Notes under the pieces: generated by a model | The model's input: only the letters and a program-made list of their open reading frames with translations | Database searches by the model: none | Told to the model about the DNA's origin: nothing | Program-made: the position numbers and the translations under genes | Assembly (NCBI GenBank): GCA_964510585.1 | Contig: CAZECW010000072.1 | Span: 29,166-61,165, forward strand | Reading direction: 5' to 3' | DNA length: 32,000 nucleotides | DNA from: an uncultured archaeon | GTDB lineage: Archaea; Asgardarchaeota; Jordiarchaeia; Jordiarchaeales; Jordiarchaeaceae | Shown: piece by piece, positions 4,869-24,063 of the stretch | Position numbering within the stretch: the first letter of the stretch is position 1 | Layout of the letters: every line of letters starts with the position of its first letter

Positions 4869-5458
4869 GTGCGACACCCCTAAATAAAGGATAAAGCAAT
4901 TAATAAAATTTGAGAGGAACGCGACCACACGCTTTAAGGTGATACATAAACTTCCCCCGATGAAAAACTTTTCTCAGCTAGTACGAATTTAATAAATAGC
5001 CATTTTTAGGAATTAAACAGTATGTTCCCTACACTTAATTCTGACCCCAACCTATGCATCCACCTCCGCCCTAAGAAGCGATTAGTAGGTGGGTAAGTCT
5101 ATCACATCCATAATAGAGGACGAGAAGAAATCAGACTCTTTTTTAGCTAATGCTTTTGCAACTCCATTTGAATATTTATAGAGGGGGAGATCCTTTATGA
5201 TAGATTTCCCAGTGAAGCTGAAGACGCTCATATAGAAGACTCCCCGATTTCGAGAAATAAGATGTCAGAAAGTATTAGGTAACTTAATTTCCAAAAACAC
5301 ATTTATATCACTACACCTTAAGGTAAACTCCATGCCTCGAACAGTTTCGTGGAAACCATCCAAAGGTACAACTTAGTAAATGTAAAATGAGAGAAGAGGT
5401 AACTTTTTATTGTACGTCAGAGAGTTGTTAAAGACAGTTTCCATTGGGTGCTTAACTT

Positions 5459-11430: not shown

Positions 11431-12201
11431 TTGGCGGAAATAGCGGTAGTAACTAGCAACATGCGATTGTACTATAAGATTATTCATGAGCTGAGAGATG
11501 AAGGTATTCCTTTTATCAGTATGAAGCCGGGCGAAACTATTCCCTCGGAGATAAAGTGCGTCATAACTTCGGATGTTGAGAAAAATTCGACGCATCACCC
11601 AAAAATTTTAACTGTGGACGCTAAGGATACTTCCGCTATTGTGCCGAAGCTACGTTTTCTTTTAAACATGGATGATGATCCTATAACTTTGGTTACTATT
11701 GGAGTGGATCCGGGTAAAACTTATGGTTTAGCTGTGCTTGTTAATGATAATTTGGTTGATGTGTACAAAGCGTTTTCCTCAAAAAGCGCTGCCAAAATTA
11801 TTGAAAACATTTTGAAAGCTTTCCCGGCAGTTAGAAAAATTATTCGTATTGGGACAGGGTCACCGCTTTACTATAGGCAGCTTTTAGAGCTTCTAAATAA
11901 TGTGGATGCTGAGTTAGAACTTGTTAATGAATTCGAAACTTCAAGTGGGCCGCGGGCAACTAAAGACACCAAGGCAGCTTTAGCAATTGCGAAGAAAAAG
12001 GGATTTAAGCCACAGGAATTTGAAAAGTTGCAGGAGATAAAGAAAGGCACAATCAAGCATATCCAGAAAATGAGCCGTCAAGCGTCTCATGGCAGAATAA
12101 CGATTAATGAAGCTAATGCTATGAAGGTAGCGAGAGGAGAAATTAGTCTAGATTTTGCTATCGCATCACAAAAAAAGAAAGGCACGAGGAAAGATTCTTG
12201 A
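11431..12201 (+). CDS. Conserved archaeal protein with RNase H-like fold
   Basis: TIGVDPGKTYGLAV, IRIGTG, LVNEFETS and DTKAALAIA pattern; overlaps the Clp1 start by 4 nt. Confidence 0.7.
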   Translation: MAEIAVVTSNMRLYYKIIHELRDEGIPFISMKPGETIPSEIKCVITSDVEKNSTHHPKILTVDAKDTSAIVPKLRFLLNMDDDPITLVTIGVDPGKTYGLAVLVNDNLVDVYKAFSSKSAAKIIENILKAFPAVRKIIRIGTGSPLYYRQLLELLNNVDAELELVNEFETSSGPRATKDTKAALAIAKKKGFKPQEFEKLQEIKKGTIKHIQKMSRQASHGRITINEANAMKVARGEISLDFAIASQKKKGTRKDS

Positions 12202-13481
12202 AAAAGACAGTTGAGACAGGCCCAAACCAAACATTTCTCATTAAGGGTCCAGCAAAAATTGAGGTTGTTAAGGGAGAGATTTCAATACTTGAGAATATCT
12301 TAGAAAAGGAGAAGAAAATTGTTATCACCAAAGGCAAAGCACTTCCAATTAAAACCATTTCGGAAGCGGTGTTAGATGTTTATATTGATGATGAAGAAGC
12401 TATCCAACCACTTGAAGAAGCGTTTCCGAAGGAATGGACTGAAGCCACCCGCCTCTTGGATAGTTTAAAGGTACCTGCAACAATAATTATATTAGGAACT
12501 GTAGATTCTGGTAAAACATCGCTAACAACTTTTTTGGCGAACAGCGCTTTTAAAAAAGGTTTCAAAGTCGCCATAGTTGATTCGGACGTGGGGCAGAGCA
12601 GTATAGGCTTACCTTGCTTCATCAGTATGGGGATTATGGAAAAAACGGTTTCTATACTCTCTGAAGTTAAATTAAGGGAGGCTTATTTTGTTGGGTCGAA
12701 TACTCCCTCTCGGTTATTGCACAGAACACTTACGGGTATAGCGGTGATGGTGAAAAAGGCGTTAGAGAGTGGTTCAGAGATAGTTTTTATAGACACTTCT
12801 GGCTGGGTATATGGGAGGAGTGCCAGAGAGCTTAAGACATCGCTAATATTAATGTTGCAACCTACGATTCTTATTGCATTACAGAGAGGGGAGGAAATAG
12901 AGCATCTATTAGCTCCGTTCAACGGCTCTTTAAAGATTGTTAGACTCCCCGCTCCTAACACCTACAAAAGAGGGAGGGAGAGTAGAAAATTCATTAGAGA
13001 AATTCTTTATCGAAAAGGATTGGAGGATGGGCGGGATATTACTATGAGTCTGGAACAAATTAGGCTAAGATACACTTTATTTGGTTCTGGTTCTAAAGCG
13101 AGACCAGAAAGATTTGAAGAAATAAAAAAGCTACTAGGGTATACTCCTGTTTATGTTGAGGAATCCGAGGATCTGTTATATATAGTTCTACCGAACGAAG
13201 AAATTAGAATAAATAAGGATATCACAGAGTTTCTAGAGGCGAAATTAGGTAAACCAGAAGTATATCTCGTCCAAAAAAGGGATTTTGAAAACGTCTTAGT
13301 TGCCTTCCAAGACCAGAGCAATGCATTTGTTGGCACAGGCATAATCAGGGAAGTGGACTTTGAGAAACGCGAAATTACCTTCTATACTCCAGCCGAAAAA
13401 GAAAAAATAAGATTTGTACAATTAGGACAGTTAAAAGTTAGCAAAGAGGGGGAAGAGCTAGGATACACAAAAATACTTTGA
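12198..13481 (+). CDS. clp1: Clp1/Grc3/Nol9-family polynucleotide 5'-hydroxyl kinase
   Basis: GTVDSGKT P-loop, DSDVGQSSIG and IDTSGW motifs. Confidence 0.88.
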   Translation: MKKTVETGPNQTFLIKGPAKIEVVKGEISILENILEKEKKIVITKGKALPIKTISEAVLDVYIDDEEAIQPLEEAFPKEWTEATRLLDSLKVPATIIILGTVDSGKTSLTTFLANSAFKKGFKVAIVDSDVGQSSIGLPCFISMGIMEKTVSILSEVKLREAYFVGSNTPSRLLHRTLTGIAVMVKKALESGSEIVFIDTSGWVYGRSARELKTSLILMLQPTILIALQRGEEIEHLLAPFNGSLKIVRLPAPNTYKRGRESRKFIREILYRKGLEDGRDITMSLEQIRLRYTLFGSGSKARPERFEEIKKLLGYTPVYVEESEDLLYIVLPNEEIRINKDITEFLEAKLGKPEVYLVQKRDFENVLVAFQDQSNAFVGTGIIREVDFEKREITFYTPAEKEKIRFVQLGQLKVSKEGEELGYTKIL

Positions 13482-13536: not shown

Positions 13537-14751
13537 CTACTTTCTTCCAATCCATCCTATTTCCTTTATTGTTTCGCCTGTTTCAATAACCTCAATAGCC
13601 TTTTTCAATGCATCCTTCTGATCCTGCACCGTAACATCTCTGCCTCCAAGACCAGCTATGAATTCTAACACGTGTGGCCTTTTATCCTCTATGTATAGAG
13701 CTGCCTTGAGTTCAGATGCTGAAGCACCGCCTTTACCTGGCGAAAGGTTTCTATCTATTACGGAAATAGCTTTAACATTTTTAGCGATTCTGCGAATCTC
13801 CTCGTCTGGAAAGGGCCTAAAAACTCTCAATTTAACTGCTCCGACCCTATAGCCCTCTTCTCTTAACTCATCAACAGCTACTATAGCTTGGTCAGCCAGA
13901 GAGCCCATACATACAATAACTGCGTCTGCATCATTGCACTCATATTCTTCAACCAGGCCTCCGTGATATCTGCCGAATCTCTTTTTGAAATCTGAAGCTA
14001 CCTGTAAAATTTTCTTTTTGGCGTTTTCTTGGGCCAAGTGCATAAGATACTTAAACTCGTAAAACCAATCATCAGGATTTTGTAAATTTCCGTGAGTTAT
14101 CGGGTTATCAATGTCCACTCTTATGTGTGTGGGATTATAAGGTGGCAGGAACACATCAACCTCTTCTTGTTCTGGAATCTCTACTGGCTGAGAAGTGTGG
14201 CTAATAGTAAATCCCTCATAACAGACCATAACGGGCAAAAGAACTTCCTCATCCTCCGCAATTTTATATGCCTGTATTATTGAATCAAACGCGTCTTGAT
14301 GATTAGCACAGTAAATTTGTAACCAGCCAGTATCTCTCTGAGAAACTGAATCACCATGGTCAGCCCAAATGTTCCAAGGCGGTCCCAAAGCCCTGTTAAC
14401 TATAGCCATAACAATGGGTAAACGTGAAGCTGCTGCCCAATGAACCATCTCATGCATATAAGCCAAACCATGAGCAGAGGTCGCAGTAAACGTTCTCACC
14501 CCTGTTAGAGATGCGCCAATACAAGCAGCCAAAGCAGAATGCTCAGACTCTACCCGCACAAATCTAGCATTTAACTCCCCACTCTCAACCAAATCAGATA
14601 ATTTTTCCACAACACCAGTTTGCGGCGTTAATATCCCCAAACAAGAAGATAATCTTGTTCAGATTGGATAAGCCGCAATAACCGCAGGTCTACACAAAGC
14701 AGCCGCATATGCAGCCGCATAATTCCCAGTCGTTATTACAGTCTTCGCCAT
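13537..14751 (-). CDS. porA: 2-oxoacid:ferredoxin oxidoreductase alpha subunit interrupted by a 33-nt intron; join(14751..14664,14630..13537), 393 aa
   Basis: True ATG at 14751 overlaps the upstream stop (TAATG). MAKTVITTGNYAAAYAAALCRPAVIAAYPI is followed by an insertion with in-frame TGA, then TPQT. Downstream are ESEHSA, TATS and GLGGRD motifs. Substrate specificity is not determinable. Confidence 0.9.
14631..14663 (-). other. Candidate bulge-helix-bulge (BHB) mRNA intron, 33 nt
   Basis: Pre-mRNA GCGGC-UU-AUCC-AA^U-CUGAACAAGA-UUAUCU-UCUUGUUUGG-GGAU-AU^U-AA-C-GCCGC has a 4-bp central helix, two 3-nt bulges and flanking helices. Cutting at canonical positions restores CCA AUA ACG CCG (P-I-T-P). 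Confidence 0.88.
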
Positions 14752-15680
14752 TATGCTTCCTCCTTTTCTCTAACCAAACGCATACTTTTCTTAGGACAAA
14801 TAGATACACATATACCACAGCCCTTACAATAGGTATAGTCAATCACAGGATAACCCTCTTCGTCAACCGTCACCACATTCTCAGGGCAGAACATCCAACA
14901 CGAAAGACATTTTGAACAGGTTTCCCGGTCGTAAACTGGTTTGAAGACTCTCCACTCGCCAGTGATTCCCATGCTTGCCTTCTCGGGTTTAGAAATGGGT
15001 ATTGGCGTCAAATCCTTCCAGGTTCGAAACTGGGAAACCCTTTCGCGCCTGGAGACAGGCATGTTGCCATCAAGATACAGTTCCTTAGGCACTACCCGTT
15101 CTACAGTTTTTTCAAAAGCCACCTCGACAGCTCTAAGATTTTTCTCGTCTTGCTTGCCACTAAATGTATCACTTAAAGCCTCTAGGACAGAATCTAAACT
15201 GATTAAACCTGTGGCTTTAGCAAAAGCACCCAGCATGGGAGTGGCAGAAAGTGCTAACCCCGCTACTTCTAAACCGAACTCGATAGAAATACTGGTAGCG
15301 TCTACAGTAAAAACTTTAGCATCCTTGGGAAGTTTACCGATCTTACTGAAAATATCTGAGTTTCCTGGAGTGTTAATTACTAGAGTGCCACCAGCTTTCA
15401 AACCGTCTGTAATGTTGACCAGACCGGACTCAAAAAGACTAAAATCAACTACAATAACAATATCGGGAGTGTACACATTGGAATGAATCCGAACTGGCTC
15501 CTTTGAAAATCTTGTGAATGCCACCACGGGAGCCCCGCGCCGCTCCGCACCGAAAAATGGGAGTGACTGGACGCCCTTAAAGCCTTCGTGGAATGCTGCC
15601 TCAGCCAATATTCTAGCGGCTGTAACTGTTCCAGCGCCGCCTCTTCCATGCCATCGGATCTCGTATACTTTAGCTGGCAT
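14751..15680 (-). CDS. 2-oxoacid:ferredoxin oxidoreductase gamma-delta fusion subunit
   Basis: IRWHGRGGAG and FGAERRGAP gamma motifs, plus a C-terminal 2x[4Fe-4S] domain (CSKCLSCWMFCP, CKGCGICVSICP). GGAGGTG precedes the ATG at 15680. Confidence 0.92.
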   Translation of the reverse strand: MPAKVYEIRWHGRGGAGTVTAARILAEAAFHEGFKGVQSLPFFGAERRGAPVVAFTRFSKEPVRIHSNVYTPDIVIVVDFSLFESGLVNITDGLKAGGTLVINTPGNSDIFSKIGKLPKDAKVFTVDATSISIEFGLEVAGLALSATPMLGAFAKATGLISLDSVLEALSDTFSGKQDEKNLRAVEVAFEKTVERVVPKELYLDGNMPVSRRERVSQFRTWKDLTPIPISKPEKASMGITGEWRVFKPVYDRETCSKCLSCWMFCPENVVTVDEEGYPVIDYTYCKGCGICVSICPKKSMRLVREKEEA

Positions 15681-15816
15681 TTGCGCACCTCCAAAATGAG
15701 GTCTCCTTATCAGATTATTTGATTTACTAGCTTTACACAAACCAGTCCTTAAAACAGTTTTGGGTAATAAAATTTAACTAGTGTGAAAAAATACAAAACA
15801 GTATTACAACTTAAAA

Positions 15817-15979: not shown

Positions 15980-16891
15980 ATGTCAATAAAAGCATTACGC
16001 TCTGAAGCACCTGAAGAATATTGGTTACCGGGAAATTCTTCGTGTCAAGGCTGCGGCTCAACACTTGCCTTAAGATGGGTCTTGAAGGCATTAGGCAAAA
16101 AAACTGTTATGGTTGTACCCGCATCATGCGCAAATGTTTATGTGGGGTGGTGGCCTCGCTCATCTGCGGGTGTAACCTATTTTGATATGGCATTCGCCGC
16201 CGGCGGATCTGTTGCCTCTGGAATAGTAGCTGCACTGGATTACCTAAACAAAAAGGATATAAATGTAGTCGCATGGGTGGGCGATGGAGGAACAACAGAT
16301 ATTGGAATCCAGGCATTGAGTGGCGCCGCTGAGAGGGGTACTAATTTCATTTATATTTGCTATGATAATGAGGCGTATATGAATACTGGTACTCAGAGAA
16401 GTAGTAGTACTCCCTTGGGTGCTTGGACTACTACAACGCCTTTTGGTAAGGGACAGCAGAAAAAGAATGTTCCTATGATTATGGCAGCGCATAATATTCC
16501 TTATGTTGCAACTGCGTGCTCCAGTTATATAAAAGATCTGTATGAGAAGATAAAGAAGGCTAAGGACATAGAGGGCACTAAGTATATTCACATTTTGGCT
16601 CCCTGCCCCCCTGGTTGGCGTTTTGATACAGATTTAACGGTGGAGATCGGCAAGCTAGCGGTGGAAACTGGCATGTGGGCTCTTTACGAGATTGAGAATG
16701 GCGTATTTAGGTTAAGTAGCCCCAGCAAGCGAGTTATGGATCCATCGAAGAGAAAGCCAATACAAGAATACATTAAGCTTCAAGGTAGGTTCAAGGGAAT
16801 TACAGATGAGCAAATCCGAGAGCTTAAGAATTATGTCGATAGACAGTGGGTAAGATATGGCAAAATGGAGGAGGGCTGCCCCGTATTTTAG
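15980..16891 (+). CDS. porB: 2-oxoacid:ferredoxin oxidoreductase beta subunit
   Basis: CQGCG, GDGGTTDIG, YDNEAYMNTG and APCPPGW motifs. Confidence 0.93.
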   Translation: MSIKALRSEAPEEYWLPGNSSCQGCGSTLALRWVLKALGKKTVMVVPASCANVYVGWWPRSSAGVTYFDMAFAAGGSVASGIVAALDYLNKKDINVVAWVGDGGTTDIGIQALSGAAERGTNFIYICYDNEAYMNTGTQRSSSTPLGAWTTTTPFGKGQQKKNVPMIMAAHNIPYVATACSSYIKDLYEKIKKAKDIEGTKYIHILAPCPPGWRFDTDLTVEIGKLAVETGMWALYEIENGVFRLSSPSKRVMDPSKRKPIQEYIKLQGRFKGITDEQIRELKNYVDRQWVRYGKMEEGCPVF

Positions 16892-17680: not shown

Positions 17681-18619
17681 TTATTCGTTAATGTTTTGGG
17701 TCAATTTTTCTAGAGCAATTAGCTCCTGCCATTTTTTATCCACGTAGTCTTGTATTTCCTGTATCATTTTGTCTTGGCGTTTTGGTTTGAAAAGATGTCT
17801 GAATTTACCCTGATATTTTAGATATTCTTCTACGGGTCTCTTCTTAACAATATTTTTCGTTATTTTGTACTTTCCATTTTCCACTTCGTACAGCGGCCAG
17901 TAGCGAGTGAGCACAGCCTCTCTAGCAATCTCTATTGTTAAGTCCGACTCAGTTCTCCAACCCCTAGGACATGTAGCTAAAATCAAAATGAAGGAAGGAC
18001 CTTCAACCGAAACCGCTTTACGAACCTTTCTTATGAGATCCATTGGATACGCAGGGCTCGCAGTAGCAGCGTAAGGAATTTCGTGCGCCACAACAATTTT
18101 CATAAGATCCTTCTGAAAACGAACCTTACCTGGAACCACCTTGCCAGCTGGGCTAGTCGTCGTCCATCCAAACTTGGGAGTTGCGCCACTCTGCTGGATG
18201 CCTGTATTCATGTAAGCTTCGTTAGAGTAGCAGATATATGTAAACTTATGGCCCCTCTCTAAAGCTCCGGACAGCGCCTGCAACCCAATATCATAGGTAC
18301 CTCCATCGCCTGCGATGGCTATTATGGGGTTATCTGTTTTTGGGATTTTGCCTTTCCTTTGTAAGACTTTGAGTCCTGCTTCTACACCTGCTGCAGTAGC
18401 GGCGGTGCACTCGAATGCAGTGTGTATCCAAGGCACGCTCCAAGCAGTGTAGGGGTAGGGAGTAGTCGCTACTTCAACACAGTTGGTGGCATTGACTATT
18501 ATGGGTGGTTTATCAAGGGCGATAAATACTTGTCTTAGAGCTATTGCAGCTCCACAGCCTGAGCACATTCTGTGACCAGGAGTCAAGTATTCTCGTGTGG
18601 GTAAACTTTTCAGAGACAT
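17681..18619 (-). CDS. porB: Pyruvate/2-oxoacid:ferredoxin oxidoreductase beta subunit
   Basis: GHRMCSGCG, GDGGTYDIG, NEAYMNTG and TCPRGW motifs. Confidence 0.94.
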   Translation of the reverse strand: MSLKSLPTREYLTPGHRMCSGCGAAIALRQVFIALDKPPIIVNATNCVEVATTPYPYTAWSVPWIHTAFECTAATAAGVEAGLKVLQRKGKIPKTDNPIIAIAGDGGTYDIGLQALSGALERGHKFTYICYSNEAYMNTGIQQSGATPKFGWTTTSPAGKVVPGKVRFQKDLMKIVVAHEIPYAATASPAYPMDLIRKVRKAVSVEGPSFILILATCPRGWRTESDLTIEIAREAVLTRYWPLYEVENGKYKITKNIVKKRPVEEYLKYQGKFRHLFKPKRQDKMIQEIQDYVDKKWQELIALEKLTQNINE

Positions 18620-18622
18620 TTT

Positions 18623-19834
18623 TTATCCTCCATCATATGTTACATTTATACATCCAGGCCCTCTACAGCCTACGACTCTGTAAACTGCTTCGATTTTGTC
18701 TTCTCGCACGGCTTTGAGGAGTATTTCGACGACTTTTTCTAAATGTTCAATTCTGGTGTCTCTTCCTCCAAGACCCGTAGGAAATCCCATAACGTGTGGC
18801 CGGTTTTTAAGTTCATATAACGCAGATCTTACTTCCATACTTAGGGCCCCGCCCATTGCTCCAAAACTAATGTTTCGGTCTATAACTCCCACGACTTTTA
18901 TATCTTTTAAGGCCCCTTGGAGGTCATCTTTCGGGAAGGGGCGGAACACGCGGAGTTTTACTAAACCCACCTTTTTTCCACTTTTTCGTAGTTTGTCCAC
19001 TGTTTCTTGAGCTGTTCCCGCCAGCGAACCTATAGCTAGTAATGCGACTTCTGCATCTTCCATTTGATATGATGAAACTGTTTCGTAATTTGTGTTGAAT
19101 CTGTTATTAAAATCATCAAAGACCTCTTTGATAACTTTTAGGGAATTTTGTGTGGCTACTTCTTGTTGCACTTTGATTTCAGGATAGTATTCAGGTACTC
19201 CAACACAACCAACCGTAACTGGTTTTTCCACACTTATTGGAAACTGCATTTTTCTGGGGGGTAGAAAATCGTCTATGTCTTTTTGCTCTAAGAGTTCTAC
19301 TCCCTCGGTTGCGTGGCTTACGACAAAGCCATCGTGACAGGACATTACGGGCAGCTGAACATTTTTGTCCTCTGCTATTTTGAATGCTTGCATAATAGTG
19401 TGATATGATTCTTGGGCGTTTTGGTTGTAGATTTGTATCCACCCCGAGTCTCTGACCCCCATAGTGTCACTCATATCATTCCAGATATTTAGGGGGCTGT
19501 TAAGTGCCCTATTAGATACTGCCATGACTATCGGTAGTCTAAAGGAAGAAGCAACAAATAACATTTCGAACATGAGAGCAATACCTTGGGAGGCCGAGGC
19601 GGTAAATACTCTAGCCCCAGAGAGAGAAGCCCCGATACACGCAGCCATCGCGGAATGTTCGGACTCCGCAGCGATAAGCTCAGCATCGATTTCGCCATCG
19701 GCGTAAAACTGTGCTAGTTCTTCGACAATTTGTGTTTGGGGAGTTATAGGATACATAGCTATTACATCGGGGTTGCACTGTTTTACCGCGTGTGCCACAG
19801 CTTCATTGCCAGTTAATGCGACAAGTTTTCCCAT
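18623..19834 (-). CDS. porA: Pyruvate/2-oxoacid:ferredoxin oxidoreductase alpha subunit (uninterrupted)
   Basis: GNEAVA, YPITPQT, ESEHSA, FRPFP and GLGGRD motifs. Confidence 0.95.
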   Translation of the reverse strand: MGKLVALTGNEAVAHAVKQCNPDVIAMYPITPQTQIVEELAQFYADGEIDAELIAAESEHSAMAACIGASLSGARVFTASASQGIALMFEMLFVASSFRLPIVMAVSNRALNSPLNIWNDMSDTMGVRDSGWIQIYNQNAQESYHTIMQAFKIAEDKNVQLPVMSCHDGFVVSHATEGVELLEQKDIDDFLPPRKMQFPISVEKPVTVGCVGVPEYYPEIKVQQEVATQNSLKVIKEVFDDFNNRFNTNYETVSSYQMEDAEVALLAIGSLAGTAQETVDKLRKSGKKVGLVKLRVFRPFPKDDLQGALKDIKVVGVIDRNISFGAMGGALSMEVRSALYELKNRPHVMGFPTGLGGRDTRIEHLEKVVEILLKAVREDKIEAVYRVVGCRGPGCINVTYDGG

Positions 19835-19835
19835 C

Positions 19836-20126
19836 CTATTCCTCCTCCATTTCTATTGCTTTTGCAGGACACTCTCTTGAGCATATTCCGCACCCTTTAC
19901 AGTAAAAGTAATTAATTTTAACCCCTTTTTCTTCTCTTTCTATTGCTCCTTCAGGGCAGTAAATCCAGCATAGGAGACAGTTGTTGCATTTGTCTTCTTT
20001 TATTACTGGTTTTTTTCCTTCTCTCCAGTCGCCGGTTCTGTATTCTCTAGCGTTGCCCGGTTCTGTAATGTATCCTCCTATGGGAAGCTCATTCCAGGCT
20101 AAGAGTTTCTTTTTGGATTTACTCAA
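19836..20126 (-). CDS. porD: Oxidoreductase delta subunit (2x[4Fe-4S])
   Basis: TGDWR, CNNCLLCWIYCP and CKGCGICSRECP motifs. Confidence 0.94.
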   Translation of the reverse strand: MSKSKKKLLAWNELPIGGYITEPGNAREYRTGDWREGKKPVIKEDKCNNCLLCWIYCPEGAIEREEKGVKINYFYCKGCGICSRECPAKAIEMEEE

Positions 20127-20680
20127 CTTATTTTAACCTCCTTGTATGCTCTCATTATCGCATCTATGTTTTTTTCTGCTAAATCTTGTTCGAACATTTC
20201 TCTAGTTATTTTGTTAATAGTATCTAAACTTACGACTCCGGTTGTTTTTGCTAAGGCTCCCAAGATTGGCGTATTGGTTATAGCTACACCTAGAGTTTCT
20301 AAAGCAATTTTGGTTGCGTTAACTGTTGCCACTTTGTTGTTAACCTTTAACTCAGATTTTAATTCATCGGGGCTTTTATCGATGTTCACAATTATGACTC
20401 CATCCTTCTTTAGCCCTTCTGTAACATTTTCAACCTTTATTAATGTTGGATCTAGTACAACGACAATATCTGGCTCGTAAATCTGAGATCTGCTGAGTAT
20501 TGGTTTGTTACTTATCTTGGCGAATGCCTTTATTGGCGCCCCTTTTCTCTCTGCTCCGAATGCCGGGAATGACTGAACGTTTTTCCCTTCCTTTAAAGCA
20601 GCCTCTGCAACGAGTCTACTGGCGGTCACAACGCCTTGTCCTCCTCTTCCGTGGAATCTAATTTCTACGATATCCTTCAA
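20123..20680 (-). CDS. porG: Oxidoreductase gamma subunit
   Basis: IRFHGRGGQG and FGAERKGAP motifs; canonical gamma-delta-alpha-beta operon order. Confidence 0.95.
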   Translation of the reverse strand: MKDIVEIRFHGRGGQGVVTASRLVAEAALKEGKNVQSFPAFGAERKGAPIKAFAKISNKPILSRSQIYEPDIVVVLDPTLIKVENVTEGLKKDGVIIVNIDKSPDELKSELKVNNKVATVNATKIALETLGVAITNTPILGALAKTTGVVSLDTINKITREMFEQDLAEKNIDAIMRAYKEVKIS

Positions 20681-23892: not shown

Positions 23893-24063
23893 TGGCGCCG
23901 GGAGTGGGACACTCTAGGAAGCAAGGATTTCTGGCTTCCATTCGAACCCACGCATCCCTTGCGGGATACTGGCTCTCAAGGCTCACGCTTGAAGGGAATA
24001 CTCCATTCAATCAGCGCAGTAATGTGGATTTTTTAGAGGTATTATCCACTTTGCTATCCCGGC
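23893..24063 (-). tRNA. tRNA-Ser(UGA) with three non-canonical introns (24043-24022, 24011-23983, 23940-23910), encoded CCA
   Basis: Removing 22+29+31 nt gives an 89-nt cloverleaf: GCCGGGA/TCCCGGC acceptor stem, G73-CCA, CTGGC-CTTGAGA-GCCAG anticodon arm, ATCCC-GCAA-GGGAT variable arm and GTGGG-TTCGAAT-CCCAC T arm. Confidence 0.93.

Follow-up and report, generated by a model that had tools for sequence, protein, structure and literature searches.

Evidence for a spliced bulge-helix-bulge intron in the coding region of a porA/vorA-like gene of an Asgard archaeon

Introduction

How can a full-length enzyme subunit be made from a gene whose reading frame meets a stop codon after 30 codons? The question is raised by a porA/vorA-like alpha-subunit gene in a 32,000-nt stretch of contig CAZECW010000072.1 (positions 29,166 to 61,165; GenBank assembly GCA_964510585.1), hereafter the window, to which all coordinates refer unless another contig is named. 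The host is an Asgard archaeon (Freyarchaeia/Jordarchaeia) of hot springs, represented by a metagenome-assembled genome of 3.78 Mb (217 contigs, 96% complete). Its closest genomes are Candidatus Jordarchaeia QZM_A3 and RPF2, Jordarchaeum madagascariense, and Freyarchaeota SRVP19_Freyarchaeia-1 (CP147778.1).

A first-pass annotation, made from the sequence alone, had proposed that 33 nt within this gene form an mRNA intron of the tRNA type, with a motif of the bulge-helix-bulge (BHB) type at its ends. The present analysis supports that proposal by the geometry of the motif, its conservation in five species, an RNA contig and the presence of genes for the splicing endonuclease EndA and the ligase RtcB. 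The 33 nt at 14663–14631 (minus strand) are thus very probably a BHB intron that is removed from the coding region of the alpha-subunit mRNA by RNA splicing.

Results

Interruption of the alpha-subunit gene

The gene is preceded by GGAGG and starts at ATG 14751–14749 (minus strand), which shares a base, in TAATG, with the TAA that ends the gamma-delta fusion open reading frame (ORF) upstream. Exon 1 (14664..14751, minus; 88 nt) comprises codons 1–29 and the first base of Ile30, and reads M...AAYP plus that base. The insert follows directly (14631..14663, minus), placed by homology, by its fold, by the RNA contig and by the empty site outside the genus. If read unspliced, the gene continues with AUC and an in-frame UGA (14661–14659) and is translated as MAKTVITTGNYAAAYAAALCRPAVIAAYPI up to that stop; 11 codons beyond the UGA, the frame resumes with TPQTGVVEKL (TPQT returns at 14628) and is open from there to the stop at 13537. 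Exon 2 (13537..14630, minus), which begins UA|ACG CCG and ends with the TAA stop, contains the rest of the POR_N domain and the PFOR_II domain. The paralogous alpha gene at 18623–19834 reads AMYPITPQT with no insert. All elements described by the first-pass annotation, namely the TAATG-coupled start at 14751, AAYPI, the 33 nt with an in-frame UGA, TPQT and the uninterrupted YPITPQT of the paralogue (MYPITPQT), are present in the sequence.

Exon 2 matches Pfam POR_N (7.8e-65) and PFOR_II (1.1e-31). The POR_N match begins at profile position 17, compared to position 1 for the paralogue, so that exon 1 encodes the missing start of the domain. With exon 2 only used as the query, the NCBIfam model PorA_Arch is matched at 1.3e-137 (459 bits, cut-off 550) and the VOR alpha model at 416 bits (cut-off 646). 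By these matches the alpha subunit is certainly a member of the POR/VOR (PorA/VorA) family; both pyruvate and 2-ketoisovalerate fit this family, and the scores lie below both equivalog cut-offs.

Bulge-helix-bulge motif and predicted splice product

The motif as a whole occupies 14622..14676 (minus strand) and consists of three helices separated by two bulges. The outer helix pairs GCGGC (14676–14672) with GCCGC (14626–14622) and, past a bulged C at 14627, continues as UU (14671–14670) with AA (14629–14628). It is followed by the central 4-bp helix, AUCC (14669–14666) with GGAU (14636–14633), flanked on opposite strands by 3-nt bulges, AAU (14665–14663) and AUU (14632–14630). The inner helix (14662–14653 with 14646–14637) has 10 bp, two of them G-U, and is closed by a 6-nt loop, UUAUCU. 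The motif therefore has both defining elements of a BHB, a 4-bp helix with two opposite 3-nt bulges and flanking helices of at least 2 bp on both sides. The same fold is the unconstrained minimum free energy (MFE) structure obtained with ViennaRNA (−25.1 kcal/mol, z = −5.7), and none of 200 shuffled sequences was as good.

If both bulges are cut behind their second nucleotide, 14663–14631 (33 nt) is lost and CCA AUA ACG CCG remains, exactly as the first-pass annotation had stated. The predicted joined product reads YPITPQT and aligns without gaps to the intronless orthologue. The spliced RNA is predicted to carry the junction ...UAUCCAA|UAACGCCG..., and the predicted junction-spanning peptide includes AAYPITPQTGVVEK.

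The 26 nt that would be joined by splicing, GCGGCTTATCCAATAACGCCGCAAAC, are identical in the intronless porA of an unrelated organism (L184:640–665, JGI contig Ga0079037_100211628). The match is due to codon conservation. Because these 26 nt are shared, the exon half of the motif, GCGGC...GCCGC (Ala-Ala and Thr-Pro codons), is seen to form a short hairpin even where a gene has never contained the intron; in the gene studied here the intron is located in the loop of this pre-existing exon hairpin. A blastn-short search of the genome with the intron gave only chance matches of 11–17 nt, and thus the intron is not a sequence repeat, as would be looked for in a mobile element.

RNA evidence

Four public sequencing runs were compared on the operon, of which X15 is the only one recorded as metatranscriptomic RNA-Seq. 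A contig from X15 (1386 nt, depth 62) spans the gamma-delta gene, crosses the splice junction and enters the alpha gene. It covers 14255–14629 and 14663–15673 and skips exactly 33 nt; the joint, 14629/14663, has 1 nt of slack, within which the BHB-predicted segment 14631–14663 is included. Contigs from X13 and X18 have 40 listed single-nucleotide polymorphisms (SNPs) in common with the X15 contig, and keep the insert except for 3 loop nucleotides. On the basis of these SNPs, X13, X18 and X15 represent the same or a near-identical strain, which is ~96% identical to the genome studied here. The DNA run X3 retains the full insert. The X15 contigs are confined to the operon, and the DNA contigs extend beyond its ends. 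The X15 contig is direct evidence for removal of the 33 nt at the RNA level; a junction of this kind in RNA-Seq data had been named by the first-pass annotation as a check on the proposed intron, and it is found in RNA of a strain whose DNA-type contigs keep the 33 nt.

The alternative that survives best, though we consider it improbable, is that the insert is polymorphic in DNA, that the X15 contig derives from an insert-less strain or from contaminating DNA, and that the insert-bearing copies are never spliced. Such a strain would have to carry all 40 SNPs listed for the insert-bearing X13 and X18 contigs, in a genus where the insert is kept in five of five genomes (see below) as well as in runs X3, X13 and X18. 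The alternative draws on the facts that an RNA library can hold DNA, that contigs cannot prove transcription, and that X15 was sampled in another study than X13 and X18. When JGI metagenome contigs were searched with the joined 26-mer, a single match came up, the porA of the unrelated organism described above, and no intronless Freyarchaeial DNA allele. Moreover, the low ratios of nonsynonymous to synonymous substitution (dN/dS, 0.04–0.08), exon 1 included, would make no sense if the full-length protein were never made.

Conservation among relatives and selection

The insert is found at the same site in all five same-genus genomes that cover it, with lengths of 33, 33, 33, 33 and 28 nt; one of the five is a closed 3.58-Mb chromosome (CP147778.1), which has the 28-nt copy at ~1,589,350. 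In a sixth genome of the genus, the contig ends short of the site. In about 25 genomes outside the genus, including many other Asgard lineages, the site is empty, with an unbroken AYPITPQT or CYPITPQT. Five of them belong to the sister family within the order (68–71% identity), and uninterrupted AYPITPQT is present in 11 genomes of that order and in 20-odd other genomes, Asgard and non-Asgard. The comparison of orthologues that the first-pass annotation had suggested thus separates the genus from its relatives, and a single intron gain at the base of the genus would be the simplest history.

The spliced coding sequence (CDS) has 393 codons in all five genomes, with no other stops or frameshifts. 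Pairwise dN/dS values of the spliced CDS are 0.04–0.08, with dS reaching 1.0–1.9, and exon 1 has a dN of 0–0.03 at a dS of 0.09–1.7. By these rates the spliced gene, including exon 1, is under strong purifying selection. The insert is itself more conserved than synonymous sites. Its central helix and bulge positions are invariant across the five species; five pairs of the inner helix vary on one side only and always remain standard (A-U to G-U; G-U to A-U or G-C), one terminal inner-helix pair is opened in one genome, and the 5-nt deletion in the 28-nt copy corresponds to the apical loop. Across the five species 98% of the pair cells are standard, compared to 42–54% when the partners are slid; a shuffle control on pair conservation carries no information at five sequences.

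These comparisons bear on a second alternative, in which the RNA stays unspliced and the stop codon is dealt with in translation, by ribosomal bypass (hopping), by readthrough or by selenocysteine insertion at the UGA. Four copies have UGA as their stop and one has UAA, which excludes selenocysteine, and translation through the 28-nt copy would shift the frame, which excludes readthrough. A stable hairpin directly 3' of the stop codon could serve such a process, and the matching flanking codons (CCA AU/AU A) do resemble take-off and landing sites for bypass; however, the hairpin has the geometry of an EndA substrate, the same motif and cut rule restore rtcB, adenosylhomocysteinase and a moaE-like gene (see below), and the RNA contig lacks the 33 nt. 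Translational handling is therefore highly improbable.

Decay of the alpha gene to a pseudogene, redundant to the intact porGDAB paralogue 3 kb away, would account for the in-frame stop after codon 30 next to an uninterrupted paralogous cluster (17681–20680). It is scarcely credible for a gene with 393 undisturbed codons in five species, a dN/dS of 0.04–0.08 at dS values up to 1.9, an insert better conserved than synonymous sites, and a transcript from which the insert is removed (the X15 contig). The dN/dS values and the constraint on exon 1, upstream of the apparent stop, rule a pseudogene out; the relaxed selection that the first-pass annotation had named as a possible refutation is not seen. 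An assembly or binning artefact, conceivable in a 217-contig metagenome-assembled genome, is equally negligible, with the same insert in five independent assemblies, the closed chromosome CP147778.1 included, and in each of runs X3, X13 and X18, and with 73–100% of the sampled 31-mers of the locus present in six public DNA runs from separate studies.

Several points weigh against RNA splicing of the insert. The BHB was described as strict by the first-pass annotation; this holds for the AUCC/GGAU helix, the AAU and AUU bulges and the 10-bp inner helix, but the outer helix is short, with 2 bp, a 1-nt bulge (C) and then 5 bp. BHB-like motifs of such strength are also common by chance, with thousands genome-wide. 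There were ~2,400 decoy hits in ~1e9 configurations tested, and the chance of such a motif at one junction fixed beforehand by homology is ~1e-5; the weight of the structure as evidence comes solely from its position on a junction that was set independently by homology. No double compensatory base-pair change is seen among the only five sequences available. The RNA support consists of one assembled contig from one run, and belongs to the ~96%-identical strain rather than to this genome. Since some DNA may be carried over into an RNA library, the X15 sample could conceivably hold an intronless DNA allele. Finally, cutting by EndA, joining by RtcB, the chemistry of the ends and a circular form of the intron are predictions from the known mechanism.

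Splicing machinery and tRNA introns

The genome contains two EndA genes (two PF01974 hits). One (C157:27039–27287) has Tyr, His and Lys residues at the presumed catalytic triad, as judged by eye, and we take it to be the alpha subunit; the other (C126:19921–20181) appears by eye to lack the His and is presumably beta-like. An alpha and beta-like pair fits the (alpha-beta)2 EndA of broad specificity that has been reported for Asgard archaea (PMC5829648). RtcB is also present (1.1e-173), and its own gene is broken by a 30-nt insert.

ARAGORN and Rfam found only 5–7 tRNA genes in the genome without intron removal, most of them 93–107 nt in length. Such a low number in a 96%-complete genome agrees with the report that 92–95% of Freyarchaeia tRNAs are intron-bearing (PMC11291895). 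Within the window, ARAGORN finds no tRNA. After brute-force removal of BHB-like segments, a tRNA-Ser(UGA) appears via ARAGORN at ~23893–24063 (minus strand), and arises on many alternative intron boundaries.

Proposed splicing mechanism

The pre-mRNA can fold such that exon codons 25–30 and 31–33 pair with one another and also with the insert's 3' end. By analogy with the known mechanism, the heteromeric (alpha-beta)2 EndA would cut after the second nucleotide of each bulge, giving ends with 2',3'-cyclic phosphate and 5'-OH. RtcB would then ligate the exons at the predicted junction to give YPITPQT, and would probably circularize the excised intron. Because the unspliced mRNA ends at the UGA after 30 codons, full-length alpha subunit would come only from spliced RNA. 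Competition between ribosomes and EndA for this RNA is to be expected, given that translated codons make up half of the BHB and that translation of the gene is coupled to that of its upstream neighbor. The ancestor of a single Freyarchaeia/Jordarchaeia genus probably acquired the intron; in this genus, tRNA genes appear to be almost all intron-laden and ~1% of the protein genes, rtcB included, may carry similar mini-introns.

Other mRNA introns in the genome

The first-pass annotation had also suggested that more such introns may be hidden genome-wide, and a homology census found three. An intron-poor genome from the same order supplied a 1.11-Mb contig, whose ORFs were compared to the genome studied here, giving 584 orthologue pairs, and a case was counted when a stop-bearing insert had a 4-bp helix with two 3-nt bulges and its removal by the same cut rule gave a gapless alignment. 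Four of the 584 pairs qualify, or ~0.7–0.9% of genes, with a fifth case doubtful. The first is the alpha gene itself (33 nt); the census region was picked to include it, and the unbiased count is thus 3 of 583.

The second case is rtcB, with a 30-nt intron (L003:1561–1590, equivalent to G000 contig C58:3762–3791, plus strand) at LPD|AHQGYG. Its insert places an in-frame TGA within the conserved PDAHQGYG motif and has CCCG/CGGG as its helix, with ACA and AAG as the bulges; a cut behind the second nucleotide in each bulge restores LPD|AHQGYGFPIGG. The gene is broken by the insert in five of five same-genus genomes and in none of seven outside the genus. The rtcB message thus probably needs the ligase for its own splicing. 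The third is adenosylhomocysteinase (30 nt; L055, G000 contig C4:20568–20597, plus strand; TKWE|FDN), and the fourth a gene that we take to be moaE-like from a reading of its sequence, without a family search (27 nt; L054, G000 contig C140:43123–43149, plus strand; QIW|KKEY). Both inserts are stop-bearing and have a 4-bp helix with A-rich 3-nt bulges.

The doubtful fifth case (a212) is a candidate 37-nt, AU-rich, frame-shifting intron at ~4900–4936 of G000 contig C188 (minus strand), in the orthologue of G006 ORF 370524–371306; its removal gives a gapless alignment, but its helices are weak (AGAA/UUUU at the center). Census events q57, c50 and c207 were rejected as introns. Most of the tblastn events in which a stop was aligned were traced, instead of to introns, to antisense ORFs or to the non-coding leader of a stop-to-stop query ORF.

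A genome-wide scan for BHB motifs at broken ORFs had been another suggestion of the first-pass annotation. An ab initio scan of this kind, with ORF-restoration and codon-usage filters, was rejected as a census, with real counts equal to those of a parallel-pairing decoy at every threshold (e.g. 192 real and 202 decoy); for motifs with an inner helix of 6–8 bp, there were 2,708 real and 2,371 decoy hits. Structure alone therefore cannot provide a census of mRNA introns. The strict scan missed the alpha-gene intron because its outer helix has only 2 bp before the bulge, and a relaxed scan of the window only also missed it and returned only weak candidates.

It is about an even chance that these cases reflect a general property of the genus, in which tRNA-type splicing would be a routine step of mRNA maturation. 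Dozens of genes (~1%), including central metabolism and rtcB, would then carry recently gained BHB mini-introns, often in highly conserved motifs, and their expression, that of the ligase included, would depend on EndA and RtcB. If true, introns could be observed today as they invade protein genes in this Asgard lineage, which is related to the ancestor of eukaryotes, and a feedback loop would be inherent in the system, since production of the ligase would itself require the ligase.

Operon setting and neighboring genes

The gamma-delta fusion subunit (14751..15740, minus strand; POR domain and 4Fe-4S dicluster) lies upstream of the alpha gene in the operon and is coupled to it by TAATG. A divergent gene on the plus strand (15980..16891) encodes a TPP-binding beta subunit, with matches to Pfam TPP_enzyme_C and to NCBIfam PRK11864 (3-methyl-2-oxobutanoate dehydrogenase subunit beta; 438.6 bits, cut-off 405). 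From its position, this subunit probably partners the alpha subunit whose gene bears the intron. The layout of this cluster is unusual, with gamma and delta fused in one 329-aa ORF and beta on the other strand. By internal comparison, the paralogous, uninterrupted porGDAB-type cluster 3 kb away (17681..20680, minus strand) keeps the standard gamma-delta-alpha-beta order.

On the other side, a gene for a Clp1-type P-loop polynucleotide kinase (12198–13481, plus strand; Pfam CLP1_P 5e-36) is convergent to the intron-bearing gene, 56 bp from the latter's stop. In eukaryotes, Clp1 acts together with the tRNA splicing endonuclease. The Clp1-type and porA-like genes are adjacent in the same way, and this arrangement is kept across the whole order, including the family in which the porA-like gene has no intron, and is therefore probably just conserved gene order.

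Comparison with known systems

Among the known systems closest to the alpha-gene intron are the canonical and non-canonical introns of archaeal pre-tRNAs, which in Freyarchaeia and Atabeyarchaeia include multi-intron tRNAs (PMC11291895; bioRxiv 10.64898/2026.10.13.758758). Both have the 4-bp helix, the two 3-nt bulges, the predicted cut positions and a length of ~20–50 nt, and both occur in this genome. They differ in the host RNA, which here is a translated mRNA, so that half of the recognition structure consists of codons under amino-acid constraint, and in that the splice product is judged by its reading frame rather than by a cloverleaf fold.

In eukaryotes, the HAC1/XBP1 mRNA is cleaved by Ire1 and undergoes an unconventional cytoplasmic splicing, with ligation by RtcB in metazoans, as a regulated stress response. 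Like the alpha-gene intron, that of HAC1/XBP1 is a short mRNA intron that is independent of the spliceosome, its endonuclease recognizes stem-loops, a tRNA-type ligase joins the exons, and the full product needs the splice. The endonuclease (Ire1) and the motif are different, and the character of a regulated response is known for HAC1/XBP1 only.

The established archaeal precedent is the BHB intron in the pre-mRNA of cbf5 (the aCBF5 pseudouridine synthase) in the Crenarchaeota, namely Desulfurococcales and Sulfolobales (Yokobori et al. 2009, PMC2738675). The cbf5 and alpha-gene introns are both short, lie in an archaeal protein-coding region with a BHB at the exon-intron junctions, occur in lineages with an (alpha-beta)2 EndA, and are distributed patchily and within restricted lineages, from which gain or loss can be concluded. 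In contrast to cbf5, the host gene here is a central-metabolism oxidoreductase rather than an RNA-modification enzyme, the phylum is Asgard, the genome contains several such introns instead of a single one, and the evidence for splicing is one metatranscriptome contig rather than reverse transcription PCR (RT-PCR) or in vitro cleavage. With a different gene and phylum, the alpha-gene intron falls outside the cbf5 intron lineage but within the same mechanistic class.

In the literature searched, which leaves most subscription journals outside, cbf5 has for more than 20 years been the only archaeal protein gene with a documented tRNA-type intron, and within the same bounds no paper was found on BHB introns in protein-coding genes of Asgard archaea; the Freyarchaeia and Asgard intron literature searched, including PMC11291895, describes only tRNA introns. 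What is new, and supported by environmental RNA evidence, is that tRNA-type splicing acts on a central carbon-metabolism mRNA in an Asgard archaeon. Gene callers will report such genes as truncated or broken, and metabolic reconstructions of these much-studied genomes will consequently miss or mis-size them. The introns described here offer a testable system for the spread of introns into coding regions, for splicing alongside coupled transcription and translation, and for whether splicing capacity gates expression where rtcB itself is intron-bearing.

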